Origin: a virus
Reading direction: 5' to 3' (one strand)
DNA length: 53,966 nt
IMG/VR virus record: IMGVR_UViG_3300043639_000022
Location: 1-53,966 of that record
The notes under the pieces were generated by a model that was not told the origin of the DNA, did no database searches, and was given only the letters and a program-made list of their open reading frames with translations. The position numbers were made by a program, and so were the translations under genes. The stretch's first letter is position 1; each line of letters starts with the position of its first letter. This document shows positions 18,517 through 52,236 of the stretch, piece after piece.

Positions 18517-18522
18517 GAAGAC

Positions 18523-18648: not shown

Positions 18649-18809
18649 CATTCAAACGCACGAAACCCGCTGGGCTTGAGACCAACGGGTTCCACACTCT
18701 CAAATCTAAATGTTTTGTTTTTGAACCGACCGCTAACGAACTCTCCTGCCTCAATCAATTTGGTATTGCGCTCCTAAGAGCAAAAGCTAATCTACTCCCG
18801 TGCTCGTTC

Positions 18810-19448: not shown

Positions 19449-19462
19449 TTTCAATCCTTTCG

Positions 19463-34186: not shown

Positions 34187-34629
34187 ACGAACTGACGTAT
34201 AGCACGAACCTGAAGCCCGCGAAGTTGAAACTGAAGCGTTCAGCAATGAAGCGCGGCGTCAAGAAACTGCGACCCGTCAGGAAGTCAGCGATCAACTCGG
34301 AACACTGGCTAAAGAGTAAGTTGACGATCGCGTTCTCGAAGTTCATCCGTGCGCGAGATCCGTTTTGCTACTGCGGGCAACCGTCGACAGAGAATGGTCA
34401 TTACTTCAGCCGTGCGGTTCCCTCAACTGAATATGAGCCTGATGCGTGTCTTGGCTCCTGTAGTCGCTGCAACCTACTCCACGAGACAAATCCGGCGCCG
34501 ATGAAGCGCGCACTGATCGCCAGGATAGGTGAAGAACGATTCAGCGAGCTCGAGCAGAAAAGCTGGGATCATTCCAAGTTGACTTATTCAGAATTAGAAG
34601 ACCTTTGCGAGTTATACCGGGAGAGATAA
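34183..34629 (+). CDS. ninG: NinG-like recombination protein
   Basis: FSKFIRARDPFCYCGQ...NGHYFSR...CSRCNLLHETN...IARIGEERFSELE. Confidence 0.65.
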   Translation: MNELTYSTNLKPAKLKLKRSAMKRGVKKLRPVRKSAINSEHWLKSKLTIAFSKFIRARDPFCYCGQPSTENGHYFSRAVPSTEYEPDACLGSCSRCNLLHETNPAPMKRALIARIGEERFSELEQKSWDHSKLTYSELEDLCELYRER

Positions 34630-35132
34630 TGAATAAACTTCTACCCTGCCTCGCCTTACTGACCATCTCGAGTATCTGCATGGCCGATGGTGTCAACAAG
34701 CCTAAGAAGAAACGTCACAAGGCTGCTGTGGTCAAGCAAGACACTAAGCCTGCGGCCAAGCCGAAGCTCCCGTCTCTGCTCACATCCAAGTACGACTTGA
34801 TTGCAGAACCATTCGTCAGACCGTTACGACCACTCAACGAGATTCCGCCATTGCCGGCTGAAGTGTTGGTGACAACCGAGACGAGAGTTTATGATTTCGA
34901 GGAGGACAAGAAACCTAAGTGGGCCTGGTTGCTACTCGGTACAGCAGCGATACCGTTTCTGATCCCTCATGGACATGATGATGTGATACCAGTCCCGCCA
35001 GTAGGCCCAGCACCGCAGATTGCGCCTCAGAGTGTGCCGCCGACAGCAGTGCCAGAAGGTTCGACGCTGCTTTTGCTGTCGATTGGGTTTGTGTGTCTAG
35101 GTTTCTCAATCAGAAGGAGGCGGAATGCCTGA
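34629..35132 (+). CDS. Exported protein with PEP-CTERM sorting signal
   Basis: Signal peptide MNKLLPCLALLTISSICMA. C-terminus VPEGSTLLLLSIGFVCLGFSIRRRRNA has a PE(P)-like motif, TM helix and Arg cluster. Confidence 0.6.
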   Translation: MNKLLPCLALLTISSICMADGVNKPKKKRHKAAVVKQDTKPAAKPKLPSLLTSKYDLIAEPFVRPLRPLNEIPPLPAEVLVTTETRVYDFEEDKKPKWAWLLLGTAAIPFLIPHGHDDVIPVPPVGPAPQIAPQSVPPTAVPEGSTLLLLSIGFVCLGFSIRRRRNA

Positions 35133-37656: not shown

Positions 37657-37809
37657 ATGCTCAAACAGATGAATCTCATCTTCTTACCCTACTACTTCCA
37701 GTATTACGTTGACCGACCAGGCTTATTGGTCCTTGCGCTTTTCTTTCTTGTGCTGACGATTGTCGGCTTAGTAACTATGCTCAAGGGAGAGTTTCGTGAT
37801 GATATGTGA
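37657..37809 (+). CDS. Small membrane protein (50 aa)
   Basis: Manual translation MLKQMNLIFLPYYFQYYVDRPGLLVLALFFLVLTIVGLVTMLKGEFRDDM. Confidence 0.3.
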   Translation: MLKQMNLIFLPYYFQYYVDRPGLLVLALFFLVLTIVGLVTMLKGEFRDDM

Positions 37810-37978
37810 TAGATGCGCTGACCGCCGTCATAGCCACTGTGAACTCAAGCAGAAATGTGGCTGTCGGTCTTGGAAGTGCTGTCAAGCCTTTGGCCGGTCC
37901 GTTCCGTCACTCAGTATCTTGGCGAGAATCGTATGGTGGTTTAAGTTGAACTTCATCTACGGTGTCGAACGCTACTGA
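37796..37978 (+). CDS. Small Cys-rich protein
   Basis: 60-aa ORF, CDRC...HC...CGC...CC. The 3' end overlaps the convergent late gene by 7 nt. Confidence 0.3.
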   Translation: MMICDRCADRRHSHCELKQKCGCRSWKCCQAFGRSVPSLSILARIVWWFKLNFIYGVERY

Positions 37979-40188
37979 GTAATACACCCACTCGCCCAAG
38001 TACAGACTGTAATTCCGGTTGCACCTAACCCTGTTAATAGCGTAGACCAATCAACGCCTGGATCAGTTCCCGCCGTTCCCATTCCCTTATAGCTACTAAG
38101 CGCGGTTAGTGAGTAGTTACCCGCCGTCGCGCCGGATTGAGCGTTAGTAAAGCCCACGCTACTGAACGAGGTAATCACTGGACAGATGTTTGCTCCGCTG
38201 CCCCACTCGCTCGACGCACCGCAATGAGTCGCTCCTGAACCTGCTGTGTCGTTCTCTACGACCACGTTGTTAGAGAACGATGCGCCAGGATAGCAACCCG
38301 CAAGACCACCCGCGCCGCCACAGGTATCGAGAGCCTGCATCCCGTAAGTCTGATAGGCAACGATATTGTCTCGAAAGACAAAGTTCGTGACAGGAGCACC
38401 GTAAACACCCCAGGTATCATAGTAAGCAAAGGCTGTGTTGGCAGTGTTGATGACGGTGTTGTGGTACACCTGCATGTCATCGACATTTTTCGAGTAGGCC
38501 AATGACGAAACATTCTTGATGAGGTTGTTGTAAATCAGAACGTGTTTAGTGGGATCAATCGTCGCGTAGTTTCCCGCATCAACTACTCCAAAGGCTTCCC
38601 GTGTTCCCGCTGTCGGATCTAGGTCAGGCGCAATCCAGTTGTTCCTAATTGTGATGTACTTACAAGTGGACCACGGAGCTGTGCCGTACTGATTGCCGGG
38701 GTAAGTCGTCAGGATCGCCGGATAGCCGAGAACATAATTACCTTCAAAGGTGAAGCGGTTAATGTTCTTGATCTCGTACAGACCTTTCGGAGTCGCCCCG
38801 CTTCGAGCTAAGACATCAGCGGCAAACACTGGCTCAACATAGAATGTGTTGCGCTTGATTAGAACGTCGTTTACTAACCCTTGATCGCCGTAGTTCCAAT
38901 CGGCCACCACTGCACTGTTAGAAGCAAGAGCGTTCGTGCCAAAGGGTGTGTAATTCACCGTCGAACCGACAACGCTCGTGACTACAGCAGTTTCGTACAC
39001 CGTCCAAGTAACAGTGCCTGGAGTTGATGATGCCGATCGGGTTCTAGCCCATGTATAAGTCCCGCCTGAGACCGTACAGATGCCAATGTAGCCATCAAAG
39101 TTATCGACCACATTGCGGGTAATGCCGTACATGATCGCGTCTGATGACGTGAGAGAACTTCCTGAGAGACGGGTTAGCGTGGCTGACGAGTAAGGCATCG
39201 AACCATTCGCGGGAAACGAACCGTTGCACGAATCATTCAGTCCAGTAGCGTCAAGCGTGGCAGTGCCAGTGAAAGCCAACCGAAGCATCCCGCCGGCGGT
39301 GAGTCCAGTGGTATTCGAGAAGGTTGCGCTCGTAGTCGTCGCCCCCGTTAAGGTTGCGGTATTCTGCGGCAGCGTATCGCCACCGCCAAAGAATCCGCTA
39401 TTCCACCACGAAGATAAGTAGTTATCTTCGAGCGTTGGAGATTGACACGAAACACACAAGAAGGCACTCGTCTCCATCTGCGTGTGCGTAAACGGAGATG
39501 AACCTTGCGCTTGAGATGTGTAGTAATACCCGATGAAGGGTTCCGTATAACACCACTTGTAGAGCAGCGTCGTCCCTTCAAATTGCACTGCGCGAATGAC
39601 TGCGCGATGGTAGCCAATACCGCTTTCAGTAGTTCCCGTTCCTGTTTCTTTCTGGTGCAGGTAGAGACGCTTGATAACGATGTCGTGACAGCCTGAGAAC
39701 GAATTGCCGAGATCGAGCAAGCTCTGGACTGTGTTCTCCACTCCTGGCGCGTCAGTGAGTTCTAATCCGTCAAGAGTCCAGAAGCCCGCATCCGTGGCAG
39801 TGGTGAATACCGACGCTCCCGAGCCTGCCGTTGTTCTAATCTTCGGCATGTTAGCCGCATCACTTGGCCCAACTCGTCCACTAGGTAGTGACGCCTTAGC
39901 GTCAGACTCGACCGTGCAGGGGCTTAAAGACGTGCAGGATCTATTCGGTAAGGTGAACACTCCGTCGAACGTGTCACCCGCATGGATAACAACCGTATCG
40001 CCGGCGACGACCGCATCAAGAGCATTCTGAAGGTTCGAGTAAGCGCAGTTGGGTGCAGACGCGACAGTCGCATTTGAGTGTCCGTTGCACTGAACTGTAG
40101 TTCCGCCGTTATTCCTCACGTACCAAGTCGAGGCGTTAGCGGAGGCGAACAGCCCGCAGATAAAAACGAGTGCGAGTATGAATTTCAT
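37972..40188 (-). CDS. Exported right-handed beta-helix (pectate-lyase-fold) protein, polysaccharide depolymerase candidate
   Basis: Start MKFILALVFICGLFASANA/STWYVRNNGG...LQNALDAVVAGDTVVIHAGDTF, then many N/G/T-rich repeat turns. Confidence 0.55.
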   Translation of the reverse strand: MKFILALVFICGLFASANASTWYVRNNGGTTVQCNGHSNATVASAPNCAYSNLQNALDAVVAGDTVVIHAGDTFDGVFTLPNRSCTSLSPCTVESDAKASLPSGRVGPSDAANMPKIRTTAGSGASVFTTATDAGFWTLDGLELTDAPGVENTVQSLLDLGNSFSGCHDIVIKRLYLHQKETGTGTTESGIGYHRAVIRAVQFEGTTLLYKWCYTEPFIGYYYTSQAQGSSPFTHTQMETSAFLCVSCQSPTLEDNYLSSWWNSGFFGGGDTLPQNTATLTGATTTSATFSNTTGLTAGGMLRLAFTGTATLDATGLNDSCNGSFPANGSMPYSSATLTRLSGSSLTSSDAIMYGITRNVVDNFDGYIGICTVSGGTYTWARTRSASSTPGTVTWTVYETAVVTSVVGSTVNYTPFGTNALASNSAVVADWNYGDQGLVNDVLIKRNTFYVEPVFAADVLARSGATPKGLYEIKNINRFTFEGNYVLGYPAILTTYPGNQYGTAPWSTCKYITIRNNWIAPDLDPTAGTREAFGVVDAGNYATIDPTKHVLIYNNLIKNVSSLAYSKNVDDMQVYHNTVINTANTAFAYYDTWGVYGAPVTNFVFRDNIVAYQTYGMQALDTCGGAGGLAGCYPGASFSNNVVVENDTAGSGATHCGASSEWGSGANICPVITSFSSVGFTNAQSGATAGNYSLTALSSYKGMGTAGTDPGVDWSTLLTGLGATGITVCTWASGCITQ

Positions 40189-40196
40189 GCTTGAAA

Positions 40197-41255
40197 TCAA
40201 ATGCCAATACAGCCCAACGCCCATGTGCAGATCGGAATACCCGCCGCCCCTACTTCAGCAACTCCCATCTGCCAGTGGTTTGATCCATAGGGTTGATCGA
40301 GGTCAGTGGCTCCACAATAAAACAGCCACCATAGCCCGTTGATCTTAATCAAATGCGGAGTTGCCGTGTGGTAGCGATCAAACGCTCCAGGCGTTCCGGT
40401 CTTAGCTAGAAAAGGATTGATTGAGTAACGCACCCAGCCTGTACTTGGATCAGATGACGTAGCGAGTCTGACATCCCAATCAACGTCAGTGCCGCCACTT
40501 TCATAAGCCAGAAAGTAGGTTGAGCCAATCTTGAAGAGTTGATGGAACTCATGGTAGCGAGTGCCGTCGTGGTAAACATCAACTCCACCCTTAGTCCACG
40601 TCAGACCATCACTCGAACTCGCGTATCGATAAGCTGGTAACACGGCTCCCGATGCGCGATATGAATAGATTGCGTGCCATGATGAGCCTTCTCTAAGGAC
40701 AGCCAACTGAGATGTGTATGTTTCATCTCCTGAAGCCATCATCACCGGATTAGAAGCGTATCTAGTCCAGGTGAGTCCTAAGTCAGACGATCGCATCAAC
40801 CCAATTTGGTTTTGATGTGCCGTGTAGTACAACCAAATCTTAGAGTCGTCTGAATTGTAGAAACACGAGTCAACTCGAATCCCGTCGCCACCGTTTTCCC
40901 AGCCTGCAAGTATCTGTTCGGCCACCGGTAGCCCGCCATTACTGACTGTTAGCGTCGTGGGATCGCTCGTTGAGAAGGTTGCTCGACCGATTGATTGAGT
41001 TCCCGATGCCACCGGTGCGCCCATGCCGGAAAAGAACATGATCACCTGAGTACTATCGGATGGATTCACGACCGTACAAGGATCGAAAGATTGCGAGTCG
41101 AAAAAGTTTCCCTGACTCGTAGCGAGGGCAGCAATCTGATGACGCGTTCCTGGTGCGGGCAGTTGCGCTAACCCTGCCACTTGACAGACGAGAATGATCG
41201 CCAATAGCGAGAGGTATCTAGCAACCACTGAATGGATACTCCTTGCTCGCGCCAC
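40197..41255 (-). CDS. Exported beta-propeller glycoside-hydrolase-like protein (GH32/43/130-type fold candidate)
   Basis: Hydrophobic N-terminus LSLLAIILVCQVAGLAQ. Repeated blade-like segments ...SSDLGLTW..., ...SSDGLTWTK..., ...SSDPSTGW... . Start uncertain (38-nt overlap with the upstream gene). Confidence 0.4.
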   Translation of the reverse strand: MARARSIHSVVARYLSLLAIILVCQVAGLAQLPAPGTRHQIAALATSQGNFFDSQSFDPCTVVNPSDSTQVIMFFSGMGAPVASGTQSIGRATFSTSDPTTLTVSNGGLPVAEQILAGWENGGDGIRVDSCFYNSDDSKIWLYYTAHQNQIGLMRSSDLGLTWTRYASNPVMMASGDETYTSQLAVLREGSSWHAIYSYRASGAVLPAYRYASSSDGLTWTKGGVDVYHDGTRYHEFHQLFKIGSTYFLAYESGGTDVDWDVRLATSSDPSTGWVRYSINPFLAKTGTPGAFDRYHTATPHLIKINGLWWLFYCGATDLDQPYGSNHWQMGVAEVGAAGIPICTWALGCIGI

Positions 41256-42009
41256 TGTTGTACAGACAGGTTTTCTCGGTAGGTGTTAGCAGTCTCTTCC
41301 AAATAGCGACGTTATCGATCTCGCCCGGAAGGTAATCTTCAAAGCCTGAATAAGCTCGCGCTCCAATGCGAAACTCGGTAGAGGTGTTTTGTGGTGCGGT
41401 TCCAGTGGTGGAGACACTCACGGCAGTATTATTGTTGACCTGAATGTTGACTGTATCTGCCGTCGCGTCATGCCAAGCGACGATGTGATACCAAGTCGCG
41501 GTAGTGACGGATACCGCGTTGTCTGTCACGATGATCGACCCGTTGACATAGAACCGGAAACGACCTGTCCCTCCTGGATCTGAAATATCCAGCGTGTAAT
41601 CTCTGCTTGACGCAGGTGAATCGCTATCCTTGCTGACAATGGAGTACGAAATGCCGGAAGGAATCGAACTGAGCAGCACGTCAGCGACAATCGTAAAGTC
41701 GATATCACCCATCTTTACGTCTGCCGAAGTTCCAGCCAGAGAAAGATAATGGGTAGCACTACCATTAAGGTATACCGCGTTGCCGATTAGTCCTGTGTTG
41801 AAGGTTGCGCCTCCAGCATTCGTGAGAGTGTTTCCCCGTCCTGAAGCGTCGGTAGTATCCGAGAGTTTGTACGCTGCCGTGAGGCTAGTCAGGATAGGTG
41901 AACTACTGGTGACAATCGGACGCCTGACAACTTCTTGAGCCTTCTGCTTTGAACCAGCAAAGCAGAGCGCAAGGATGCAGAAGGGAAGTATTAAGAGTGC
42001 TCGTTTCAT
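41218..42009 (-). CDS. Exported LamG / concanavalin-A-like lectin domain protein
   Basis: Signal MKRALLILPFCILALCFAGS. LamG pattern GNAVYLNGSATHYL...DFTIVADVLL...FRFYVNG...WYHIVAWHD...EIDNVAIWKRLLT. Confidence 0.55.
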   Translation of the reverse strand: MKRALLILPFCILALCFAGSKQKAQEVVRRPIVTSSSPILTSLTAAYKLSDTTDASGRGNTLTNAGGATFNTGLIGNAVYLNGSATHYLSLAGTSADVKMGDIDFTIVADVLLSSIPSGISYSIVSKDSDSPASSRDYTLDISDPGGTGRFRFYVNGSIIVTDNAVSVTTATWYHIVAWHDATADTVNIQVNNNTAVSVSTTGTAPQNTSTEFRIGARAYSGFEDYLPGEIDNVAIWKRLLTPTEKTCLYNSGASKEYPFSGC

Positions 42010-42011
42010 AA

Positions 42012-44114
42012 TTATTGTGCGCGACGAATCTTGAGTTCCACTCCGATCACGTCGAGCGATGCGCTCAAAGTGTCGGAACCATCATTGCCATCTCGGAATA
42101 GTTTCAGGTGGAGAAACTCACCCGCGGCACAGCCCGTCACGGTCAAACTTGTTATCGTGCTGGTTTGTAGTCGGCTTCCTGTACCTGGAGCCGCCGTGGT
42201 CGCTGTGCTCGCAGTATTGAATGCAGTGTCGTCCGTTTCCGTGGCTCCTACAGCCGTGCAGATAGTTGACAGAGAGAACTTGGCATTGCCTGAAGTGGCA
42301 GCGGTTTTCCAAATGATCTTCGCGTCGACGGTTCCGGTCCAGTCATCCGGTAAGAGCGTCGAGTTCTGAGCACTAAAGCCGCCTGACGTGTCGGCAAATT
42401 GTAAGACACCCTTCTGCGTGTTTGAACCTGTCACACAAGCAGCAACTGCCGGCGTAGATGTTGGGAGATCCCAAAACGATGCCGCCGTCGCATTGTTACA
42501 GCCAGCTCCAGCGAACCAGATGTTATGAACGGTCGTGAGTACGTTTCCGGTCGACTCAACGTTGAGCGTCTTATTAGTTAGAGTCTCGCTACTTGACGGA
42601 CTAACGAAGTCCGTTCCTGCCGTAGCCGCAGAGATAGCCGACGTACCGTTGCCTTTGAGAACTCCGGTGAGTGTCGCCGCGCCCGTACCGCCATTAGCTA
42701 CACTTATCGCTCCTGAGATGCCGTTAAGGAATACTTCTCGATAGGCAGTCCCGTCGTAGAAGAAGACTCTATTACTTGAGGCGTTCGTGTTTCGGTAGAA
42801 AGTTCCAGTGACAGGAGAACCAGGCATCGAGCCGTCTGACGCGCCGTAATCGCCACCAACGAGCTTTAGAGTGCCGTCAGTGAAGGACTTCAGACCTGTA
42901 ACAGACTCAGCACCACCAAGCGTCATTAAGTCGGCATCCGAGACCGCTGTATTGAGTTGCGCGATCGTGCTGGTAACTGTGTTACTTCCGAGTGAGATGG
43001 TTTTATTCGAGAACGAGTTCGAACTGGAGATTGTTGGCACAGCCACGCTACCAATCGTCACGCCGGTAGTGAAGTCGGGAGACGTGCCGAACACTAATGC
43101 ACCCGTACCTGTTTCACCTGTAACCGCAGAGGCGAGATTGGATGATGACGGTGTGGCTAGAAATGTTCCCACGCCAGTACCGAATCCGGTAATGCCTGTC
43201 GATACTGGAAGCCCTGTGGCGTTCGTTAGCGTCACCGCTGACGGAGTACCAAGATCGGGAGTCGTTAAAGCTGGAGATGTAGCGAACACCAACAGCCCGC
43301 TGCCCGTCTCATTCGTCACCGTTGACGCAAGATTTGCGCTTGTTGGTGTGACAAGAAACGTTCCCATCCCCGTTCCGAATCCAGTGATACCCGTGCTCAC
43401 AGGAAGTCCAGTGCCGTTAGTTAAAACGACCGCTGAAGGCGTACCGAGTGCTGGAGTGGTGAACGTCGGAGAAGTAGCAAAGACCAGCAAGCCTGATCCT
43501 GTTTCGTTGGAGACGACTCCTGCTAACTGCGCTGATGTCGTGGTCGCAAACTGCGAAAGAGGACTAGAGGTAAGCGCGTCACCACCGCCAGGAATCGACT
43601 GCCACGAGTTGTCGTCCCTGAGAAACTTTGAACCGTTTGGCGTTCCAGTAGGATCGTCATACTTGGCATCGAGCGCAGTCTGCAAATCGGTTTGAGCCGA
43701 AAGAGTGCCGGTAATTGATCCCCACGGTAACGCGCCCGCAATACCGGTATTTCCTATCAGGTAATTGCTGCCGTTAGAAATCACCCTCGCGCTCTGCCCT
43801 GTAGTGAGAGCTAGAGTCGACGCGCCACCAATAGTCGACGTGGTAGGCGTAATCGTGACCGTGCCGGCCCCGATGTTCTTAATGTCCACAAACCAATCAG
43901 AGGGGAAGTTTGGGCTGATAGCTCGCGGAATGGAGACCGCTACGGATGCAGCGTTGGAGAGTGTCACCAACTTACCCGCGTCGGAACTGACAACCGTGTA
44001 CGTCGTACCCGTCTGTGACTTCACGATCTGACGGTTAGCGCGTATCGGAGTCTGTCCCTGTGCCGCGAAAGGAACACTCAACAGAAGAAAGATTAGGAAA
44101 ATTCTAGCTAACAT
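42012..44114 (-). CDS. Tail fibre-like protein with N-terminal signal-like sequence and 65-aa tandem repeats
   Basis: MLARIFLIFLLLSVPFAAQG/QTP. Fibre motif LPWGSITGTLSAQTDLQTALDAK. Repeats NETGSGLLVFATSP..TTP.LGTPSAV.LTN.TGLPVSTGITGFGTG. Confidence 0.6.
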   Translation of the reverse strand: MLARIFLIFLLLSVPFAAQGQTPIRANRQIVKSQTGTTYTVVSSDAGKLVTLSNAASVAVSIPRAISPNFPSDWFVDIKNIGAGTVTITPTTSTIGGASTLALTTGQSARVISNGSNYLIGNTGIAGALPWGSITGTLSAQTDLQTALDAKYDDPTGTPNGSKFLRDDNSWQSIPGGGDALTSSPLSQFATTTSAQLAGVVSNETGSGLLVFATSPTFTTPALGTPSAVVLTNGTGLPVSTGITGFGTGMGTFLVTPTSANLASTVTNETGSGLLVFATSPALTTPDLGTPSAVTLTNATGLPVSTGITGFGTGVGTFLATPSSSNLASAVTGETGTGALVFGTSPDFTTGVTIGSVAVPTISSSNSFSNKTISLGSNTVTSTIAQLNTAVSDADLMTLGGAESVTGLKSFTDGTLKLVGGDYGASDGSMPGSPVTGTFYRNTNASSNRVFFYDGTAYREVFLNGISGAISVANGGTGAATLTGVLKGNGTSAISAATAGTDFVSPSSSETLTNKTLNVESTGNVLTTVHNIWFAGAGCNNATAASFWDLPTSTPAVAACVTGSNTQKGVLQFADTSGGFSAQNSTLLPDDWTGTVDAKIIWKTAATSGNAKFSLSTICTAVGATETDDTAFNTASTATTAAPGTGSRLQTSTITSLTVTGCAAGEFLHLKLFRDGNDGSDTLSASLDVIGVELKIRRAQ
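43050..43535 (-). repeat. About 2.5 tandem copies of a 195-nt (65-aa) coding repeat in the fibre gene
   Basis: Units start at aa 194, 259 and 324 of the 700-aa protein and are near-identical. Confidence 0.75.
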
Positions 44115-45213
44115 AGCTTACCCTCAAATAGTCTCCCGTTTCAGGGATGGTGATCATGGTTATGGTTGCGCCTGAGATCGTGTAGTCGGTCAAGTCAGTC
44201 AGTAACCAACCGTTAAGAAAGACTTCTTCACTGCCGTCCGTAGGTGTTGCCGCCAGAACAAAGGTCGCATTCGATCCGTCAACTGAGCCTGTAGGCGTTT
44301 CGTTGACTACGCGATCGGTTACGTCGGTCTCATAGCTGACAACGAAAGTATCCCCTGTTTGCGGGATTAAGATTTGCGTCAGAGTTGAGCCTGAGAGTGT
44401 GTAGTCAACCGTCGAAGCTAGAAGCTGACCGTTAAGAAACACTTCAGCGGAATTAACGACTGGAGTGCCACCGAGAGCGAATGAGGCGTTCGATCCGTCT
44501 ATCGATCCTGACGGTGTTTCTCTAACGATCCGGCTTGACGTTCCCGTCTCATAACTGACAACTAAAGAATCGCCTGTATGGGCGACGACAATTAACGTGA
44601 TGGTCGAACCGGAGATCGTGTAATCAACATCAGCGGTGAGTAGTTGACCGTTAAGAAATACTTCCTCTGAGTCTGAAGTTGGAGCGTCATCCAGGACAAA
44701 CGTTGCGTTGCTGCCGTCGATACTGCCGGAAGGAATCTCGCGCACCACGCGCCCGTCAGTTGTGCCAGTACCACCGCCGCCGATTGATGCGATGTCGAGA
44801 ATGCCCGCAGACGGACTTGATACCGTCATCGTTGCTGAATCGAAGTTGAACGTCGTGTAAAGACCTGGTAGCGCAACGCCATCGACTGTGACCGTCACTC
44901 CCGAAGTCGGAGCGGAGACAGCCGCGCCTAAAGACTCAAGAGTCGCTGTGGCAGTAGCGGGAATGTCAACAGGAACGCCGGATGTGGGCGAGAAGCTCGC
45001 TGATCCGATAAAGAACTGACCTTGTAGCCAGACGCGAGCGTTCTGAGGAAGGTTAAAACTTACGAGACCGTTAGCGTCTGATGTGTCGAGAGTGACTTGC
45101 TTGAATTGGATTACCGCTGACGAAAGGGTTGTTCTGACGGCGTAAATCTTGACGTGCGGGATAGGGACACCCTGCACATTTTTCACCGTTCCAGTAATCA
45201 GACAATCAGCCAT
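44104..45213 (-). CDS. Tail fibre / receptor-binding protein with three 73-aa tandem repeats
   Basis: Likely start MADCLITGTVKNVQG. Repeats R.V.E.P.GS.DGSNA.F.L...P....EVFLNG.LL...DYT.SG.T.T......TGD...VSY. Confidence 0.55.
   Translation of the reverse strand: MADCLITGTVKNVQGVPIPHVKIYAVRTTLSSAVIQFKQVTLDTSDANGLVSFNLPQNARVWLQGQFFIGSASFSPTSGVPVDIPATATATLESLGAAVSAPTSGVTVTVDGVALPGLYTTFNFDSATMTVSSPSAGILDIASIGGGGTGTTDGRVVREIPSGSIDGSNATFVLDDAPTSDSEEVFLNGQLLTADVDYTISGSTITLIVVAHTGDSLVVSYETGTSSRIVRETPSGSIDGSNASFALGGTPVVNSAEVFLNGQLLASTVDYTLSGSTLTQILIPQTGDTFVVSYETDVTDRVVNETPTGSVDGSNATFVLAATPTDGSEEVFLNGWLLTDLTDYTISGATITMITIPETGDYLRVSYVS
44107..44751 (-). repeat. Three tandem 219-nt (73-aa) coding repeats
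   Basis: aa 162-234, 235-307 and 308-376 align by eye. Confidence 0.75.
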
Positions 45214-45287
45214 GTAAAACACCTTCCGCAGCACACTGTTTTAGTGCGGAAGGAGAATGGCACAGACTTGATCTTTAAGTTTTGGGC

Positions 45288-45317
45288 TTGAGGATTCGGA
45301 CGGAGTGGGCGTAATAT
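45288..45317 (+). promoter_or_regulatory. Moron promoter candidate TTGAGG-18-TAATAT
   Basis: ttgagg (45288-45293), 18-nt spacer, taatat (45312-45317). A structured leader of about 120 nt follows, then AAGGAG before the ATG at 45449. Confidence 0.3.
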
Positions 45318-45448
45318 GTGGGCATTGAAGCGGGTCGCCCGACTGCGGAAACAGTCAGAACGACCCTAACCCTTAACGCTACGATAGGAAGCGCAAAAGG
45401 CTGCTCGCATAATAAGCAAGCCTCCGCTCCCACTCAAGGAGACTTCTC

Positions 45449-45985
45449 ATGATCGCCTTACTTCTCACTGCTTTCGTTTCTATTACTCCAACTCTTTTAG
45501 ATCGCTCCGACTACGACGTTCGGCAGATATGGCCGACTCGAACAATCACCCAAGAGCACATCGTTAATGGTGGATATATCGAGAGCCTTTCCACGCTCGC
45601 GCCTAACCATTTTCCTGAGTGCGGCATCCTGGATAACAATGTTGCGGAGTATTACAGCTACGAGGACGAGACTGGATGGGCGTTCGTTCCCCGCTGGCGC
45701 ATCAGTGCCATCGTTTCCCGTGACCGAGGACTGCTAATCTTCGGCAACAACAACGAGATCATCTACGAGCAACACCAACCGTATACAGAGTTCTTCGCTC
45801 GCGTGAAGATGGAAGTAAAAGGCGACGAGTTGTGGGTCTATCTGAACGGTGAATTGATGGACGTGTCAAAGCATCCTGGCTTGCAGTTCAGAGACCTTCG
45901 AGGGTGGTTCTACGACAGCGTGATTCTGCCGAGCATGGGCTATCCGGTGAGGCAAACAAAGAACGGTGTTCACCTGACGGACTAG
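45449..45985 (+). CDS. Opposite-strand moron: protein with hydrophobic N-terminus, unknown function
   Basis: MIALLLTAFVSITPTLL... with AAGGAG RBS. Embedded antisense in the minus-strand tail-fibre block. Confidence 0.5.
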   Translation: MIALLLTAFVSITPTLLDRSDYDVRQIWPTRTITQEHIVNGGYIESLSTLAPNHFPECGILDNNVAEYYSYEDETGWAFVPRWRISAIVSRDRGLLIFGNNNEIIYEQHQPYTEFFARVKMEVKGDELWVYLNGELMDVSKHPGLQFRDLRGWFYDSVILPSMGYPVRQTKNGVHLTD

Positions 45986-47325
45986 ATCGTATACTTCGTT
46001 CTCAGATACCCTTCGACTCTTTGACGATTCACCGTCGAGAGCGCACCTTCATAGACGAGAACTTCGGCGATATCTCCATCAAACGGCAGAGAGTCGTCAT
46101 ACGCCGAGCCTAGTGTATAGCCGGTGAGCACCTGTGAACCCGCCGCACCTGAAGCAACAGAAGTCCCATTCTTGTAGATCGCGCTCGATCCCGCATTGAA
46201 TACCGCGCTCAGAACCACAAAGCTAGTACCTACATCTGTCGCGCTGTTGAGGCTGGTTCCCGCGTTGATGACCAACACTCCATCTGTGACATTAGAGAAG
46301 ACCAGTTGGCGATTTGACCCCCCGATACCGTCAAACCATATCTGGCTAGCAGTAGCGTTATCATGCTTGCCAACTATGAAGACCGTACATTGTTGAGCAA
46401 GCGCGGCGAAACTTGCGCTTCGTAGAAAATCATTTGACCCATCGAATCGAACAATCGGTCTATGGTTCTGAATGTCTCTCTTGTAGATCGGCTGTTTGCT
46501 TCCGGTCGCCTGAACCAGATCATAACTACCATAACCGTCGAGCCATTCACTCACCGCCTCACCGTCTCTTAATCTCAAGGCGTCAGCCATGAACACGCTC
46601 CTCAGTCCGGTGATGGAAGAAGGGTCGAAATAGTCGATCTTATACTTCGCCATCAATGCCCGTCTGATCGTGTACGCGTTATCGGTCGAGAGTGTACCGT
46701 CAAAGTAGAGAGCCTCTGCGATGTAACCAACCCACGGAGCCGAGAAATCGTAGGCCGCACCCATCGTTATTCCAGTGAGAGTTTGCGATCCGGTATTACC
46801 TGAGATTTGGTAAATGTCATTCAACCGAATCGTGGACGTGGTGGTATTAAACACTACTTCCAGAAGAAACCAATCCAACCCAACATCGTGGAGACCGGTC
46901 AAGTTCGTCCCTGAACTAGCGATCGGAGCACCACTAGGAAATGCTGTGGCGACTAACATTCGATTGCTCGCCCCAATACCATCTACGAGGAACCGACCAG
47001 TAGACCCAGAGGGACTACTAGCTACCAGATAGACGGTTACTGGATGAGCGCGAGCACCGAATGCCGCTGTAGCTAGATAGTCATTTGAACCATCGAATAA
47101 GAGTGCTGCCCGACCATTCGCGGCACTGATTTTGAATAGTGGCTTGTTGGCTCCTGTCGCTTGTGTAAGGTGGTAGCCATTACCAGATTGATCCGTGAAC
47201 GTACCTACCGCATCACCGTCAGCAAAGGACTCTTGTGAGGCGTCGTACCAGGCGCGGAGAGTACCGAGCGTCGAAGGACGATACGCGGAGAAAAGCTCTG
47301 TTGTGAAACCTATTCCATCAGCCAT
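45982..47325 (-). CDS. Tail fibre / RBP with two tandem LamG-like domains
   Basis: Two units of about 215 aa, each L R...DG.AV....D.SG.G..L.QATG...P........R....FDGSND.L....F...... ending G.IAE.L.Y.G.LS.....R......KY.I. Confidence 0.6.
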   Translation of the reverse strand: MADGIGFTTELFSAYRPSTLGTLRAWYDASQESFADGDAVGTFTDQSGNGYHLTQATGANKPLFKISAANGRAALLFDGSNDYLATAAFGARAHPVTVYLVASSPSGSTGRFLVDGIGASNRMLVATAFPSGAPIASSGTNLTGLHDVGLDWFLLEVVFNTTTSTIRLNDIYQISGNTGSQTLTGITMGAAYDFSAPWVGYIAEALYFDGTLSTDNAYTIRRALMAKYKIDYFDPSSITGLRSVFMADALRLRDGEAVSEWLDGYGSYDLVQATGSKQPIYKRDIQNHRPIVRFDGSNDFLRSASFAALAQQCTVFIVGKHDNATASQIWFDGIGGSNRQLVFSNVTDGVLVINAGTSLNSATDVGTSFVVLSAVFNAGSSAIYKNGTSVASGAAGSQVLTGYTLGSAYDDSLPFDGDIAEVLVYEGALSTVNRQRVEGYLRTKYTI

Positions 47326-50300
47326 TAGATATCCACCGGATTACCGATTCCTTCGTAACGAGCTTTCTGATAGATGCGGAGAAACAGAACTGATTGATTA
47401 ACTCCGAAGTCTTCAATCTGTTGCGAGCTTGAGTAGATCGTTGTTGGAAACAGATCGCCACCTGCCACGATGTTGTCGATGAGAAACGGTCCGATAGAAG
47501 CCTGAACGAGAAACATCTTCAAGCGTAGAGGGAAAGGGAACCCGCCTGACTGTGCTGGAATGATTACCAGTGGAACGTCGCCTCTGCCTGGTTGATAGTC
47601 AGAGTAAATTCGATACTCAGTGCCAGCCAATAGAATGGTGTAGCGCGTGGTCTGTCCGTCTGAGTCCCACGCGAACGTGCGAGTCGAACCTACCTGAACG
47701 CCGTAGTTGTAAATCTTTTCCTCGATATTCGCCGCATCAGGTGACGACCATTCAATGAACACGGGACAGTCTGCCGTCACCATCGACCGCGCCAGCGTGT
47801 CAAAAACATCATCGTGATCCAGCCCCGCAGTTGCGAGAGTTCCCGTACTTGTCAATCCATCAGTATCAACTCTGAAAGTGAAGTCGTAACGAGTAAACGT
47901 AGCTTGCAGGTCTTCGATTGTTTGCGCGGTTGCAGCACCTACGCCTGAACTCAGATTGTTCTTATCAGCGTGAGACGAGATGATATTAACCACATCAGCG
48001 TCAGCGTCGTATGTGGTGTCGCCCGTTGAATCCAACAGACAAGCATGGGTCGTGCCTTCGGTCACAGGCAGCGAGCGCATTAGATCCGCAGATGGATTAG
48101 TTCGGTCGTGACTGCGCCATATTTCAACAACGTACTGAGCGGGAATCTCACTAGACCGTGGACGCCCGACGAACTTAATCAGCGCATCGTTGGAAGCATC
48201 AAACGCAACGGATATGTTTGTAACTTTGCGCGGCCTGAGATTTCCGCCTAACCAGGCAAAGTTGAACGAGGCGGCATCTCCAAGTGACTGACCGACTGCC
48301 ACGGAGCGGAAGGTTAGCGAGTCGCGCAGTTCGTCTAGCCCTGCGTCGATAAACTTGATCGCATTGTCGAGCAGGACAAATCTTGTGTCCGTCAGATCGG
48401 GAGCGTTCCATAGTTCTTCTGTTTCAGTTAGACCACTCAACAGCCCTGTCAATTCCCAGCGGTTAGCGTAGTCCGTCAACTGAGTCGCTGTAGTGAATCC
48501 GAATATCGACTGATCGACAATCGCTCGATTCTCGCCGTCTCGCATTGCGTCTTCAGACACAGACGACAGAGTTGCGGTCGTGCCGTACAGGTCAACCGTG
48601 ATCTTCCCAACGCTGTCCAGTGTGTCGGAATCAACAGCCAGAGCAGTTGAGCTAACTACCTTGCCAATTGTGGCGGGAAGGTTTGAAGATCCCCGTAACG
48701 ACCAAACACTGTTTCGCTGAGACTGAAGCGTCCACCCTGCGAATGTTTGACCTACTGCCGTTCGTGGTGTGCCACCTGCATACCATCCGATCCGGTCTTG
48801 ATCTGCATCCCTGAATTGCGGAATGTCCAGCACCGTAGCAATGATCATCGCGGGGATTGGCTGTGGTGGAATGTATCCAGGCGGGAAGACGCCGTTAGCT
48901 GGCTGATCAAATATCTCAGGTTCGAGTGCGAAGCCTTCACACGTCAACAGACCAATTCCGCCCTCGATAGAACTCAACCTTAGTACGTGCGTAAAGCCCT
49001 CTGCGCGAGTGACTGTGACTTTGTAACCAGGGTGCAGATAAAGATACTTCCACGGCAGGGTGAACCGGTGAACTGTTCCCGCTACATAATCTCGATAAAG
49101 TTTCCGCTGTGCCGTCGCTCTGCGCTCGTCTGACAACTGAGCAATGTTGATTTCTACTAACTCAACTGTTGAGCCATCGGTAATCTGCCGCATTGCGCTT
49201 TGCGTGTTCGCATCCCAATCGTTATCAGGGTCGAGGGATTTAACGTGGACATCTCGCGCAAGGTCTTTTTCAGCGACTAAGATGGAATCAATTTCAGGTA
49301 GTACATCAGGCAGATCCCCATCGCCTTCCAACCAACCGATTTCAGTGTCAGGAATCGTGATTGACGGTTCATCACCTTCTGGAAAGCCAACCAGTTGACC
49401 CTCGACCTCAGTAACGAAGAAGTTACCTGCCAACTGAATGTCTGGACTGCCGATAATTTCAGCCGGCGCGTAAGGGCGACCGCTAACCAGTAATCCACGA
49501 CACGCAATGTCAAGATCAGTGAAATCGTAATCACCATTCGCCGTTAGTACTCCAACACGCTCACACATCGAAGCAAATATCTCGCCCCATGTATCGAGTG
49601 TCTGGTGTTCCCAAACTGCGGTGATGTTCGGGACCGTGCCACCCCAGCGGGACATGTCCAGCGTGTTGTGAACTACGAGCGCGTGATTCTTGTAGGCAGG
49701 AGTTGATCCGGTTCCGTATTTCGCGTCGACGTCAGACTCGATAGTTGGATCCGGTTGTTGGTCGTCGTTGCCTGGATAGATAGCGAAGCCAGAACTACCA
49801 CCTTGAACTGTTCCTGTCCCTACTCCGTCACCATCAACCGCAATGTCTCCGTCAACCCGATCGAAAGAGTCTCTATAGTTCAGCGTTGGGTCTGGAGGTT
49901 CGAGTGGATCGTAGTCGTCATCTGCTCCTACGCCCGAGTCGTGTACGCCTGAAGGGTTAGCAGACTGTGTGAACTGATCAATCAGAATGTCCGCATTGCC
50001 GTACTCACGGATCAAGTCAAGCGGCCCACGGGCGAACAATAGACCGAGATCAATGTTGTATGAGACGTTATCAACTGTCTGTGAGTGGCCGCCAAACCCC
50101 TTACCGCCCTGCGTCGGAACCTGTGAAGTCGTAATAACTTTGCGAATACCCGAACTCCACACGATGATGGCCGGAACCTTAATCCCGCCTCGTCCCTGAT
50201 TCGGAGCGTCACCGATTGAGCTAATCTGCACCTTGCCATTAGAGATCCCCGCACCGGACGAGTACATCGTTAAGCCCATGTAGAGAGGGAAAGTTGCTGA

Positions 50301-51026
50301 GACAGCCGTTGTGACGAGTAACTCCGCACTGTTCTTATAGAGTCTGAACCTGCCTTCTCGATACTCGATTCTCAGCACGTCAGTGTTAGACCAAACAGAA
50401 ACCTTTTCACCAACGTCGTTGACGACTGACAGTAAGGAACCATCCGGTCCCCAACTAAGACCGAACAGACATCCTGAATGAACTGTTGACCCCGTAGGAC
50501 TCGCCGTTGTGTAAAAGCCGCAGGTAGCCCACCCCGTTGACGGTATCACCTGAATGAAGGCGTCCTGAGTCGCAGTAAACGATGTGTTGTGGGTTGCGCC
50601 TGCGTTATAGGTATTCGCAGTTCCAGATGTTTTAGTTATAGAACCGTTCGCGCCGCCTGTCGTGTTCGTGAGGTTCTGGTAAGTCGGATTAGATCCCGCA
50701 ACCAGACTGATTGCTGGTCCCTTGCCGTAAATCTCAGGGATCATTATCCCTTGTTCAGAGTTCTGAAGCTGGAGCGTTCCTGACAGTTCACCGAGTCGTC
50801 GTCGTGGAGGTTTAGGCGCAAGAGCTGCGCTAATCGTATAGGACGCAGCGGCTAGAGCGACCGAGATGGCGACCGAGATCGCAATGGAGACCGGATCGTG
50901 AATAACGCCTTGCTCAAGAGACGCTTCTATCTCAGCCCGTTTCCGCGCTTTCGTCTCTTCCCATTCTTCTTTGATCCAACTGATCACTCTTTGATTCTCC
51001 AGATCGAGTGAACCCGCTTCCGCCAA
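47325..51026 (-). CDS. Host-specificity / central tail-tip protein (RcGTA g15 'megatron'-like, lambda J-class)
   Basis: 1233 aa directly after the NlpC/P60 gene. N-terminal hydrophobic ISVAISVALAAASYTISAALAPKPP. Start uncertain (43-nt overlap). Confidence 0.65.
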   Translation of the reverse strand: MAEAGSLDLENQRVISWIKEEWEETKARKRAEIEASLEQGVIHDPVSIAISVAISVALAAASYTISAALAPKPPRRRLGELSGTLQLQNSEQGIMIPEIYGKGPAISLVAGSNPTYQNLTNTTGGANGSITKTSGTANTYNAGATHNTSFTATQDAFIQVIPSTGWATCGFYTTASPTGSTVHSGCLFGLSWGPDGSLLSVVNDVGEKVSVWSNTDVLRIEYREGRFRLYKNSAELLVTTAVSATFPLYMGLTMYSSGAGISNGKVQISSIGDAPNQGRGGIKVPAIIVWSSGIRKVITTSQVPTQGGKGFGGHSQTVDNVSYNIDLGLLFARGPLDLIREYGNADILIDQFTQSANPSGVHDSGVGADDDYDPLEPPDPTLNYRDSFDRVDGDIAVDGDGVGTGTVQGGSSGFAIYPGNDDQQPDPTIESDVDAKYGTGSTPAYKNHALVVHNTLDMSRWGGTVPNITAVWEHQTLDTWGEIFASMCERVGVLTANGDYDFTDLDIACRGLLVSGRPYAPAEIIGSPDIQLAGNFFVTEVEGQLVGFPEGDEPSITIPDTEIGWLEGDGDLPDVLPEIDSILVAEKDLARDVHVKSLDPDNDWDANTQSAMRQITDGSTVELVEINIAQLSDERRATAQRKLYRDYVAGTVHRFTLPWKYLYLHPGYKVTVTRAEGFTHVLRLSSIEGGIGLLTCEGFALEPEIFDQPANGVFPPGYIPPQPIPAMIIATVLDIPQFRDADQDRIGWYAGGTPRTAVGQTFAGWTLQSQRNSVWSLRGSSNLPATIGKVVSSTALAVDSDTLDSVGKITVDLYGTTATLSSVSEDAMRDGENRAIVDQSIFGFTTATQLTDYANRWELTGLLSGLTETEELWNAPDLTDTRFVLLDNAIKFIDAGLDELRDSLTFRSVAVGQSLGDAASFNFAWLGGNLRPRKVTNISVAFDASNDALIKFVGRPRSSEIPAQYVVEIWRSHDRTNPSADLMRSLPVTEGTTHACLLDSTGDTTYDADADVVNIISSHADKNNLSSGVGAATAQTIEDLQATFTRYDFTFRVDTDGLTSTGTLATAGLDHDDVFDTLARSMVTADCPVFIEWSSPDAANIEEKIYNYGVQVGSTRTFAWDSDGQTTRYTILLAGTEYRIYSDYQPGRGDVPLVIIPAQSGGFPFPLRLKMFLVQASIGPFLIDNIVAGGDLFPTTIYSSSQQIEDFGVNQSVLFLRIYQKARYEGIGNPVDI

Positions 51027-51412
51027 TGGTCGTTAATGCGATGCTCTCTCACGCCGTGCTGAGACGCGTGGACGATAAATGTAGTCTTGGGTGTGATGTC
51101 TGACACGAAAACCAGGTGACGTGGAATCTCAGGTTTGGCGCAAGCCTCATCGCACAAGGCTAGAACATCACCAACCTGCATCTCTTCGACCATCTCCATG
51201 TGCTCAGTCAGTAGACGAAGCATGATCTGCCCGTCTTCGTGAGGTCGATAGTCACGAGGGATACTGAGATCCTTAACGCCTGCATCTTTAGCGACAGATG
51301 CAATGAAGTTTACGCAGTCGACACCAACATTCTTGATGTTTCCCTGATGCTGAAAGCGCGTACCCTTCCAAGTTCGCGCCTCTTCGATTAGCCGTTGTGC
51401 GAGTGTGCTCAT
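50984..51412 (-). CDS. NlpC/P60 cell-wall peptidase (tail-associated)
   Basis: ARTWKGTRFQHQGNIKNVGVDCVNFI with catalytic Cys context and downstream His residues. Confidence 0.75.
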   Translation of the reverse strand: MSTLAQRLIEEARTWKGTRFQHQGNIKNVGVDCVNFIASVAKDAGVKDLSIPRDYRPHEDGQIMLRLLTEHMEMVEEMQVGDVLALCDEACAKPEIPRHLVFVSDITPKTTFIVHASQHGVREHRINDHWRKRVHSIWRIKE

Positions 51413-52236
51413 TCGGGGTATTTCAGAACGGCTTTAAGACCTGGTAGATCCGGTTCACCTTGAAACATTTCCATCGCGCTAAACTTGTCTCGCGCCTGAT
51501 CCCGTGATCCGTCGTACCCAGCAATCAGATCAACTGTGTCGCCTACTTGGATCACGCTTCTCATTGGCAGTTGCAGGGTAATGGCATTACCGACATTTGA
51601 TTTGATCTCCATCTCAAGTCCGTCGTTATCGCCGGCAGTCCATTCAGCCCTTCCATACGCAAAATAATCGTTAGCCTTCGCGGTTCCGCCGACCGTGAAA
51701 TTCATCCGATCAGTAACCACAGTCACAGTGCGAGAGAACGTGAACGCACCCATTGAGACGCCGAGGTCTTCGGGTCGACGGTTGCGATCTACTGGACTTG
51801 TCAGATCGCCAATCTCTTGAGTGAGAAGATCAGACAACGACCGAAACTCAACAGTAAACGTGCCGTTATTGATCGTGAACTTACCCGTCTGCCCTCTCAT
51901 CCGTCCAACTGATCCGAGTGCGAGATTCAAATAGTTCACATACTCGAAAGTGATTCTTGCGTTCTTCCACTTCCCGCCCTGCACGTCTTCTTCTGTCACC
52001 GTGTCATCAAACACGCCGAACAGTTCAACGTGGTTCGCCTCTGCAACACTTAGGGTCTGAGTAAAGCGGGACGGCTCAACAGGGGCAGCGGCATAGGCGA
52101 CTGAACTAAAGGTGAGATTGCGTGTATGCGCTGCGTAGGCTGCAACCGTACCGTCCGTCGCAACCATTTTCCAGACTGCGCAGAGCGTCGTGACGTTTGA
52201 ACCTAAGTGGTCGAGCATTCCTGCGCTGACTGTCAT
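51409..52236 (-). CDS. DUF2163 / BR0599-type tail hub protein
   Basis: LDHLGSNVTTLCAVWKMVATDGTVAAYAAHTRNLTF..VAY... and C-terminal GDTVDLIAGYDGSRDQARDKF...FQGEPDLP. Confidence 0.7.
   Translation of the reverse strand: MTVSAGMLDHLGSNVTTLCAVWKMVATDGTVAAYAAHTRNLTFSSVAYAAAPVEPSRFTQTLSVAEANHVELFGVFDDTVTEEDVQGGKWKNARITFEYVNYLNLALGSVGRMRGQTGKFTINNGTFTVEFRSLSDLLTQEIGDLTSPVDRNRRPEDLGVSMGAFTFSRTVTVVTDRMNFTVGGTAKANDYFAYGRAEWTAGDNDGLEMEIKSNVGNAITLQLPMRSVIQVGDTVDLIAGYDGSRDQARDKFSAMEMFQGEPDLPGLKAVLKYPE

Follow-up and report, generated by a model that had tools for sequence, protein, structure and literature searches.

Soluble phage depolymerases, exemplified by the exopolysaccharide (EPS) depolymerase of Erwinia phage PhiEa1h and by the free enzymes that produce plaque halos, are released at lysis. 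Exported morons of the kind carried by temperate phages include Lom and Bor of lambda and Llp of T5, and on the bacterial side glycanases and lyases such as AlgL, PslG, BcsZ and the ExoK protein of Sinorhizobium are encoded within EPS loci. Examined here are four consecutive late genes, designated g1 to g4, that lie on the minus strand at positions 37972-44114 of IMG/VR virus record IMGVR_UViG_3300043639_000022 (53,966 nucleotides, analyzed over its whole length and referred to below as the window), and whose products are predicted to carry Sec-type signal peptides together with fiber-like or carbohydrate-related folds. Judged from sequence, the g1-g4 products are very probably extracytoplasmic, and there is about an even chance that they constitute a Sec-exported, disulfide-stabilized accessory set that binds and degrades EPS and is released at lysis.

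Comparison with the described systems reveals both likeness and difference in each case. As with the bacterial EPS-locus glycanases, a logic of polymer trimming is suggested by the cellular homologs of g4, which are exported beta-helix proteins of exosortase-associated EPS loci, but there is no sequence relation to AlgL, PslG, BcsZ or ExoK, and the acidobacterial family in question is uncharacterized. Like Lom, Bor and Llp, the g1-g4 products would be exported and are encoded in or near the tail-fiber region of a temperate phage; those morons, however, are small single genes with a promoter and terminator of their own that are expressed from the prophage, whereas g1-g4 form a coupled block of large carbohydrate-related proteins. 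PblA and PblB of Streptococcus mitis phage SM1 are likewise tail-fiber-like and function outside of the virion after lysis, yet they are genuine components of the virion, have no signal peptide, and attach to the Gram-positive wall once the cell has lysed. Soluble depolymerases would share with the g1-g4 set the use of beta-helix-type enzymes, a free state, action upon capsule or EPS, encoding near tail or lysis genes and a role in the spread of progeny, but the known examples have no signal peptide and stay in the cytoplasm until lysis, while g1-g4 encode four proteins with Sec leaders and disulfide signatures; free phage depolymerase enzymes are mentioned in PMC6116005. Signal-peptide endolysins and signal-arrest-release (SAR) endolysins, such as Lys44 of Oenococcus phage fOg44 and the Lyz type of P1, use the host Sec system (PMC6116005, PMC8878798). 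They too are late phage proteins that reach the envelope via Sec before lysis, but they are peptidoglycan hydrolases of lysis, and the folds of g1-g4 are without endolysin similarity. Finally, a survey of carbohydrate-active enzymes (CAZymes) in soil prophages, from which tail-fiber-related genes were excluded, found SignalP signal peptides on 5% (PMC13507307, 2026). Those enzymes are similarly carried by soil temperate phages, but the survey treats them as single metabolic genes, and no leader-bearing runs coupled to tail or lysis modules are described there. A full-text literature search returned no description of leader-bearing tail-fiber-type gene runs, an absence that is not proof of novelty, and the locus would be categorically new only if assembly after lysis were shown.

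All four genes stand in the open reading frame (ORF) listing on the minus strand, after the fiber genes and at the positions that an initial sequence-only reading had proposed: g1 at 42012-44114 (700-aa pre-protein), g2 at 41218-42009 (263 aa), g3 at 40197-41228 (343 aa, a length also given by an independent gene call) and g4 at 37972-40188 (738 aa, extended to 750 aa from 40224 in the ORF listing). The leader of each is tripartite, with one or two basic residues, 11-15 uncharged hydrophobic residues and small residues at -3 and -1. Specifically, the predicted signal peptide of g1 (MLARIFLIFLLLSVPFAAQG, residues 1-20, encoded at 44055-44114 on the minus strand) joins the n-region MLAR to the h-region IFLIFLLLSVPFAA, with predicted cleavage between A-Q-G and Q. 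The leader of g2 (MKRALLILPFCILALCFAGS) consists of the n-region MKR and the h-region ALLILPFCILALCFA, with cleavage predicted between A-G-S and K; that of g3 (MVARYLSLLAIILVCQVAGLA) of MVAR and YLSLLAIILVC..AG, with cleavage between G-L-A and Q; and that of g4 (MKFILALVFICGLFASANA) of MK and FILALVFICGLFASA, with cleavage between A-N-A and S. Translation of g3 most likely begins at the GTG at 41228, 10 nt downstream of an AAGGAG ribosome-binding site, and the product of an alternative 352-aa ORF beginning at 41255 also has a leader.

These leaders set the four genes apart from most of the genome. Among 93 ORFs, g1-g4 hold four of the six most hydrophobic N-terminal windows (Kyte-Doolittle 2.97-3.32), and a strict rule, under which the n-region must be charged, the h-region free of charge and the residues at -3 and -1 small, picks out 9 of 80 ORFs in the window, including all of g1-g4. 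The claim that all four bear Sec-type leaders is thereby upheld by a rule-based test, and the probability of encountering a run of at least four flagged ORFs by chance is p = 0.006. The other five flagged ORFs are that of a PEP-CTERM protein, one opposite-strand gene of the tail module and three genes of the probable lysis region; the flagged set contains no capsid, portal, terminase or tail-tip gene. An earlier estimate of at least ten exported proteins holds only approximately, the strict rule finding nine, to which a few small membrane proteins may be added. Read from their sequences, none of the four leaders has a twin-arginine (RR) motif or a lipobox, as the leader cysteines follow L or I rather than A, G or S. 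Nor are the products PEP-CTERM proteins: they have no NCBIfam match of this kind, and a six-frame motif scan finds only the ORF at 34605-35132, so that where several PEP-CTERM proteins had been suggested, one was found and no second. Leaders of divergent sequence stand at the same position in homologs of g1, g3 and g4 from independent assemblies.

The four genes are tightly coupled to one another and to the tail genes. Past the host-specificity gene, the minus-strand late operon continues with a double-LamG protein, a 376-aa fiber, and then g1 to g4. The ATG of g1, preceded by a GAGGG ribosome-binding site, overlaps the stop of the fiber gene by 11 nt; gaps of 2 nt and 8 nt separate g1 from g2 and g3 from g4, and the ends of g2 and g3 overlap. 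A consensus scan found no promoter-like or terminator-like site from the 376-aa fiber gene to the end of g4, and the G+C content of g1-g4 (0.51-0.54) is the same as that of the remaining genome. Plus-strand genes converge on g4 from beyond, for which reason g1-g4 are taken as the distal end of the late transcript. Two small plus-strand ORFs at this junction (37657-37978) encode a 50-aa membrane peptide and a 60-aa peptide with 8 cysteines within its first 30 residues.

Three leaderless proteins are encoded on the minus strand upstream of g1: a 1,233-aa host-specificity or central tail fiber protein (47325-51026; Phage-tail_3, Rcc01698_C), a 447-aa virion-type protein with two LamG domains (45982-47325; phrog_10356, 3.5e-41), and the 376-aa fiber (44104-45234; phrog_2710 tail fiber), which is translationally coupled to g1. 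The last of these contains three tandem repeats of ~73 aa with the pattern ..R[VI]V[RN]E[IT]P[ST]GS[IV]DGSNA[TS]F.L.... and a borderline Pfam match to CBM_X2.

The g1 product consists of the signal peptide (1-20), a small beta domain (~21-125), tail-fiber repeats (~175-350) and a C-terminal tip. PHROG matches are to phrog_6002 and phrog_21978, while no match was obtained in Pfam, NCBIfam or, by sequence, the PDB. The fiber repeat is common to 6,663 proteins, and many of these contain Pfam domains of tail fibers, with Collar, Peptidase_S74 and Phage_fiber_2 among them. The tip, a jelly-roll of ~195 aa (42015-42599, minus strand) that resembles carbohydrate-binding modules (CBMs), holds the conserved cysteines C539, C560, C619 and C662. 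In the structural model only the last ~190 residues are predicted confidently (pLDDT 82-94), the full-length model being unreliable outside of the tip (mean pLDDT 50). Foldseek matches of the tip are to CBM11, CBM27, CBM6 and CBM16 modules and to tailspike C-terminal domains; matches of the model in BFVD were uninformative.

Though fiber-like, as had been claimed for it, g1 has repeats and a distal binding domain without a recognizable N-terminal adaptor. When the N-terminal 130 residues of leader-bearing and leaderless fibers are compared, BLAST aligns them only from ~60, and mostly from 85-100; such alignments correspond to the shared repeat, and leader-bearing fibers therefore appear to lack the N-terminal adaptor domains of their leaderless relatives. 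In addition, the domain that follows the g1 leader (residues 21-125, phrog_21978) is C-terminal, and thus distal, in other fibers as well as in the g1 homolog of a second uncultured phage (contig L002). Because its N-terminal domain is distal elsewhere, g1 would have distal-type domains at both ends and no recognizable anchor. The missing anchor, together with the three leaderless tail-tip and fiber proteins encoded upstream, favors a putative function outside of the virion.

Support for folding outside of the cytoplasm can be found in the way in which leaders, cysteines and the tip vary together. Among the best 119 g1 homologs, 24 have leaders; a full-length four-cysteine tip is present in 16 of the 119, and each of these 16 has a leader (Fisher p = 3.6e-12). 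Median cysteine content is 1.41% in leader-bearing fibers versus 0.32% in leaderless ones (p = 3.5e-10), and in 22 of the 24 leader-bearing homologs the number of cysteines after the leader is even. A similar difference, about sevenfold, separates the tail-distal leader-bearing proteins of this phage and three others (1.79% cysteine) from their leaderless virion proteins (0.24%). A search with the tip alone, a query that carries no information on N-termini, recovered 2,534 cluster representatives (50% identity) among 1.84 billion. Nearly all of the 150 tip matches listed have the tip at their very C-terminal end, and of the matches listed that start with Met, 117 of 136 (86%) have leaders; 98 of these 117 leader-bearing members have even cysteine counts (binomial p = 5e-14). 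Cysteine content that is both high and even points to disulfide bonding and to folding outside of the cytoplasm, and g1 (4 cysteines) and g2 (2) fit this signature. Pfam searches with large members of the tip family gave almost nothing.

The fold assignments originally made for the remaining three products likewise stood up to closer analysis. g2 contains a LamG/concanavalin-A-like domain (PF13385, residues 98-245; 63.7 bits versus a cut-off of 27.6, E = 2.8e-17), and its two cysteines, C248 and C263, are near the C-terminus. No sequence match for g2 was found in the PDB. A paralogous relation between g2 and the leaderless double-LamG protein was considered and dismissed (BLASTP E = 0.29).

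g3 resembles five-bladed beta-propeller glycosidases of the GH43/GH32/GH130 clan, although membership of the GH43 family, as predicted from sequence, falls short of threshold. Many of its 89 homologs have Pfam matches to PF04616 (GH43), PF00251 (GH32) or PF04041 (GH130), and weak sequence matches in the PDB are to GH43-like, GH32 and GH117 enzymes (best E = 0.011). The closest leader-bearing homolog (P0145, 58% identity) is chromosomal and adjoins a GH78 rhamnosidase and ClpXP, while g3-type domains that lack a leader and have a different N-terminus are found among the structural genes of a phage, next to which an SU10-type capsid gene is present in the module. Since these contexts differ, the same predicted catalytic domain would seem to exist in a virion-context form and an exported form, of which this phage has the latter. 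Within the g3 family, members with and without leaders cannot be told apart by the cysteine signature.

g3 and g4 end in near-identical C-terminal tails that differ synonymously in their DNA: GIPICTWALGCIGI in g3 (40200-40241, minus strand) and GITVCTWASGCITQ in g4 (37975-38016, minus strand), the latter modeled with low confidence. Their shared cysteine-loop motif, G-I-x-[IV]-C-T-W-A-x-G-C-I, recurs in P0004 and P0017, two relatives of g4, but is missing from the g3 homologs. The tail may be a docking or sorting tag. Its candidacy as a widespread sorting signal was rejected, as, of all the loci retrieved, this phage alone has CTWAxGC at the ends of ORFs.

For g4, which has no match in Pfam or NCBIfam, an AlphaFold2 model built from a 17-homolog alignment is a right-handed beta-helix (pLDDT 79.6, pTM 0.83). 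Foldseek returned 51 PDB matches at E <= 1e-3, and all 50 of those listed are beta-helix enzymes or tailspikes, among them GH136 and GH110 hydrolases, PL6 alginate lyases, chondroitinase B, a fucoidan lyase and phage tailspikes. The family is small, comprising 23 proteins, and an N-terminal leader or signal anchor is present in 16 of 22 homologs. g4 contains 17 cysteines, and several of them are gained or lost in pairs across the family alignment.

The cellular relatives of g4 provide an indication of a likely substrate. Over 98% of its length g4 is 49% identical to a protein of Pyrinomonadaceae loci that encode exosortase, EpsI, PEP-CTERM proteins and glycosyltransferases, and 17 of the 20 genome loci matched are from Acidobacteriota, with Pyrinomonadaceae predominating and Chloracidobacterium also represented. 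At the best three loci (L004, L005, L006) the homolog lies inside an exopolysaccharide locus among glycosyltransferases. Pfam assigns to L004 glycosyltransferases, a DUF218 protein, a PEP-CTERM protein, exosortase EpsH (1.6e-66) and EpsI/DUF3485 (1.5e-50); L005 and L006 have the same gene order, as judged by ORF inspection only. The surroundings of a g4 homolog on a 3-Mb metagenomic contig are comparable and include asparagine synthase, heparinase II/III-like and MBOAT genes. A signal anchor is found in the cellular copies, while phage g4 has a predicted cleavable leader and a putatively cysteine-bridged N-terminal cap. The polymer linked to the exosortase is a likely substrate on this sequence-based comparison, and the most likely host is a member of the acidobacterial family Pyrinomonadaceae, a lineage indicated by the loci of the g4 relatives and in keeping with the PEP-CTERM protein of the phage itself. 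That protein, encoded at 34605-35132 on the plus strand, has the leader MNKLLPCLALLTISSICMA from an internal ATG, followed by VPEGST, a hydrophobic helix and RRRR (TIGR02595, 8.2e-5), and its presence implies a host with an exosortase.

Two further features of the cellular g4 relatives were observed. The homolog on the 3-Mb contig (P0005, 594 aa; L003, 9500-10100) seems to be truncated: homology continues in frame upstream but is broken by a stop, pointing to a frameshift, a pseudogene or faulty assembly. In L004 (3409-5040 and 5058-7217), and also in L005 and L006, the g4-like genes form a tandem pair of paralogs (~540 aa and ~700 aa), each with an N-terminal signal anchor and, after it, a Q-x-R-P-R-R linker.

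Leader-bearing genes also stand in runs of three to seven in a number of unrelated, uncultured phages. On L002, a 58-kb contig with DnaB and a GH25 lysozyme, four leader-bearing genes, including homologs of g1 and g4, end the late block. In L029, three to four leader-bearing genes in a row precede those of an M15 endolysin, a holin-like protein and a spanin-like lipoprotein; in L030, about seven stand in a row in a tail module; and in L032, which has an SU10-type portal and a terminase, four directly precede a DUF5675 gene and membrane proteins, L033 being similar in both context and run. Leader-bearing runs thus adjoin lysis genes in L029, L032 and L033. A search with the tip alignment located the domain on 20 IMG/VR contigs, while single-sequence scans of IMG/VR gave none for g3 or g4 and one locus for g1. 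Across 24 loci (20 viral and 4 metagenomic contigs), same-strand neighbors within three genes of the tip gene are leader-bearing in 19 of 98 cases versus 7 of 133 further away (p = 0.0012). A conserved partner family downstream of the tip gene was considered and rejected, the proteins encoded there often being leader-bearing but showing no BLAST clustering, and Pfam searches with the leader-bearing neighbors in L029, L030 and L002 gave almost nothing. In the unrelated phage L030, an acyl-carrier-type (PP-binding) gene is located among the tail genes (5511-5759). A nucleotide search with 37972-47325 found no match among GenBank phages, and the g1 tip, g3 and g4 have no tblastn match in 50,697 GenBank phage records, so that the phenomenon appears to belong to uncultured phages.

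Of the three explanations offered in the sequence-only reading, that of secreted proteins acting on EPS is the best supported, by the EPS-locus homologs of g4, the leader-bearing chromosomal homolog of g3 and the cysteine statistics; lysogenic-conversion cargo and leaders serving as baseplate-attachment helices are both disfavored. In the sequence of events that we infer, which takes in export, cleavage, disulfides, substrate and timing of action, g1-g4 would be transcribed and translated late, together with the tail genes. The pre-proteins would cross the inner membrane via SecYEG and be cut by signal peptidase I after A-Q-G, A-G-S, G-L-A and A-N-A, respectively, whereupon the mature proteins would fold with disulfides in the oxidizing periplasm and possibly act there on nascent polymer. 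Lysis, or an earlier secretion route of the host, would then free them alongside the virions rather than as parts of them. Glycan would be bound by g1, with its CBM-like tip, and by the g2 LamG lectin, and would be cut or modified by the GH43-like propeller of g3 and the beta-helix of g4. The EPS matrix around the burst cell and its neighbors would in this manner be loosened, allowing progeny to escape and to reach their receptors. Export would be of benefit over accumulation in the cytoplasm because disulfide-stabilized proteins can only be made outside of it.

Several points weigh against this proposal. Firstly, the leader calls are rule-based, with export and cleavage deduced from sequence, and in a diderm host Sec reaches the periplasm only, so that extracellular release needs lysis or further secretion. 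Secondly, the cysteine counts of g3 (5) and g4 (17) are odd. Thirdly, the catalytic activity of g3 and g4 is predicted from fold likeness: the GH43 match of g3 (PF04616) lies below the gathering score (25.3 bits versus 32.2; 1.2e-5), the Foldseek TM-scores of g4 are low (0.25-0.35), and a profile of the g4 family matches the PL6 lyase 7o79 (2.3e-5) over only its first ~55 residues, which form the N-terminal cap. Additionally, g1 has genuine fiber repeats, is coupled to a fiber gene and has no enzyme domain, and a free fiber is hard to rationalize; the leader-bearing proteins of L029 and L032 are the most fiber-like ones visible there and could be true receptor-binding proteins. Lastly, the promoter scan used a sigma-70 consensus, which acidobacterial promoters may escape.

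This last point bears on the alternative that survives best, namely lysogenic conversion, in which g1-g4 would be made by the prophage and would remodel the EPS or surface glycans of the lysogen, a block to superinfection or a change in the matrix being possible outcomes. Parallels are provided by Lom and Bor of lambda and by O-antigen-modifying prophage genes. The integrase encoded at 22702-23826 marks the phage as temperate and keeps this alternative in contention, and the phage carries other exported cargo, namely the PEP-CTERM protein and the opposite-strand leader-bearing gene of the tail module; moreover, g1-g4 are located at the very end of the late operon, a common site for morons, and g3 and g4 have close cellular homologs. 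Yet the genes overlap or lie 2-8 nt apart and are coupled to the fiber gene, which leaves no room for a promoter and no preceding terminator, and with a G+C content like that of the remaining genome they have neither the transcription signals nor the atypical composition by which morons are recognized. Equivalent clusters elsewhere are in line with lysis cassettes and are for this reason regarded as late genes. Conversion is accordingly considered unlikely. No PADLOC match was obtained for g1-g4 or for the two opposite-strand genes of the tail module.

A second alternative retains g1-g4 as receptor-binding proteins of the virion, either matured in the periplasm and attached after lysis, or bearing a hydrophobic N-terminus that serves assembly and not export. 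In its favor are the canonical fiber repeats of g1 and a tip domain situated where receptor-binding tips sit, the place of the family within the tail modules of genuine viral contigs, and the fact that few other fiber-like candidates can be seen in L029 and L032. T4 tail fibers attach to fiber-less particles in vitro, and docking could be served by the flexible cysteine-loop tail that g3 and g4 have in common. To our knowledge, however, assembly of a tailed-phage part outside of the cytoplasm is without precedent; the leader-bearing fibers lack an N-terminal adaptor related to that of ordinary fibers, the three leaderless proteins at 44104-45234, 45982-47325 and 47325-51026 suffice for a virion, and dilution after lysis would make attachment inefficient. 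As for an uncleaved helix, the form in which the sequence-only reading had suggested baseplate attachment, it conflicts with the high and even cysteine content expected of an oxidizing compartment, and is further opposed by the presence of leaders on cellular homologs, the co-variation of leaders with the disulfide-rich tip and the lack of adaptor domains. A virion role in either form is thus rather doubtful. Assembly in two compartments, whereby capsids and tails would be made in the cytoplasm and exported, disulfide-folded receptor-binding fibers and depolymerases would join the fiber-less particles once lysis mixes the compartments, is very unlikely, though the g3/g4 tail and the three repeats of the 376-aa fiber could be docking partners for it. 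Were it true, soil phages would carry oxidatively stabilized adhesins that are unable to fold in the cytoplasm.

It is also improbable that g1-g4 are auxiliary metabolic genes, that is, secreted CAZymes that degrade environmental polysaccharides for the nutrition of the host. CAZymes are common in soil prophages, about 5% of them with SignalP signal peptides (PMC13507307), and the cellular homolog of g3 beside a rhamnosidase has a catabolic context. Nevertheless, g1 and g2 are binders without a catalytic fold, the cellular relatives of g4 are found in loci for EPS biosynthesis and not catabolism, similar clusters adjoin lysis genes, and predicted co-expression with tail genes would place the proteins in a host near death. 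Finally, that the leaders are non-functional, being chance hydrophobic N-termini or the product of wrong starts on cytoplasmic proteins, is highly improbable: although scoring is rule-based and the g3 start is ambiguous (41255 versus 41228), independently assembled homologs of g1, g3 and g4 retain leaders, the starts that include the leaders lie behind ribosome-binding sites, the clustering would arise by chance with p = 0.006, and leaders are strongly associated with cysteine content and the tip domain.

If g1-g4 are indeed exported as accessory proteins, some phages would use the Sec and disulfide machinery of the host to make extracellular glycan binders and cutters alongside the virion. 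A part of the "tail fibers" annotated in soil viromes would then be non-virion proteins, which would affect host-range prediction from receptor-binding proteins, and at least 2,534 clusters of disulfide-stabilized, EPS-directed phage proteins would represent a possible source of stable matrix-degrading enzymes. In evolutionary terms, a phage enzyme would further be linked directly to the exosortase-dependent EPS loci of Acidobacteriota, offering a testable handle on the structure of the polymer as well as on the interplay of phage and host in a dominant, poorly cultured soil phylum, and export would raise the question of whether parts of tailed phages can mature outside of the cytoplasm.

The window is bounded by a 127-base direct repeat (1-127 and 53840-53966), and the same sequence, assembled independently in Logan (SRR35183378, 53,869 bp), begins inside g1; on account of both, the window is taken as a complete genome, circular or terminally redundant. 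This soil phage is temperate and of siphovirus type. Its annotated genes include those of a P22-type coat protein (6742-7911), a DUF4055 portal (9771-11321), the large terminase (11272-12717), the tyrosine integrase (22702-23826) and an ERF recombinase (28449-29309). The tail tip resembles that of gene transfer agents, comprising DUF2460 (52751-53482), hub (51409-52236) and NlpC/P60 (50984-51412) proteins in addition to the host-specificity protein.

Among the head genes, a 254-aa ORF (5941-6705, minus strand) has a weak Pfam match to glycosyltransferase-2 (7e-4) that is below the cut-off. Inside the tail module, two plus-strand ORFs are without Pfam or PADLOC match: that at 52309-52758 has a classical leader (MKPLLLILALATVAAA, followed by QE), and that at 45449-45985 has a hydrophobic N-terminus without a basic n-region. 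The probable lysis region (16689-19583, minus strand) contains three ORFs that have leader- or anchor-like N-termini and no Pfam matches. One of the three, a lipoprotein-like ORF at 17500-17970 (..AYSGYGFAC followed by SS), could encode an outer-membrane spanin. Also in this region is a small membrane protein encoded at 18196-18453.

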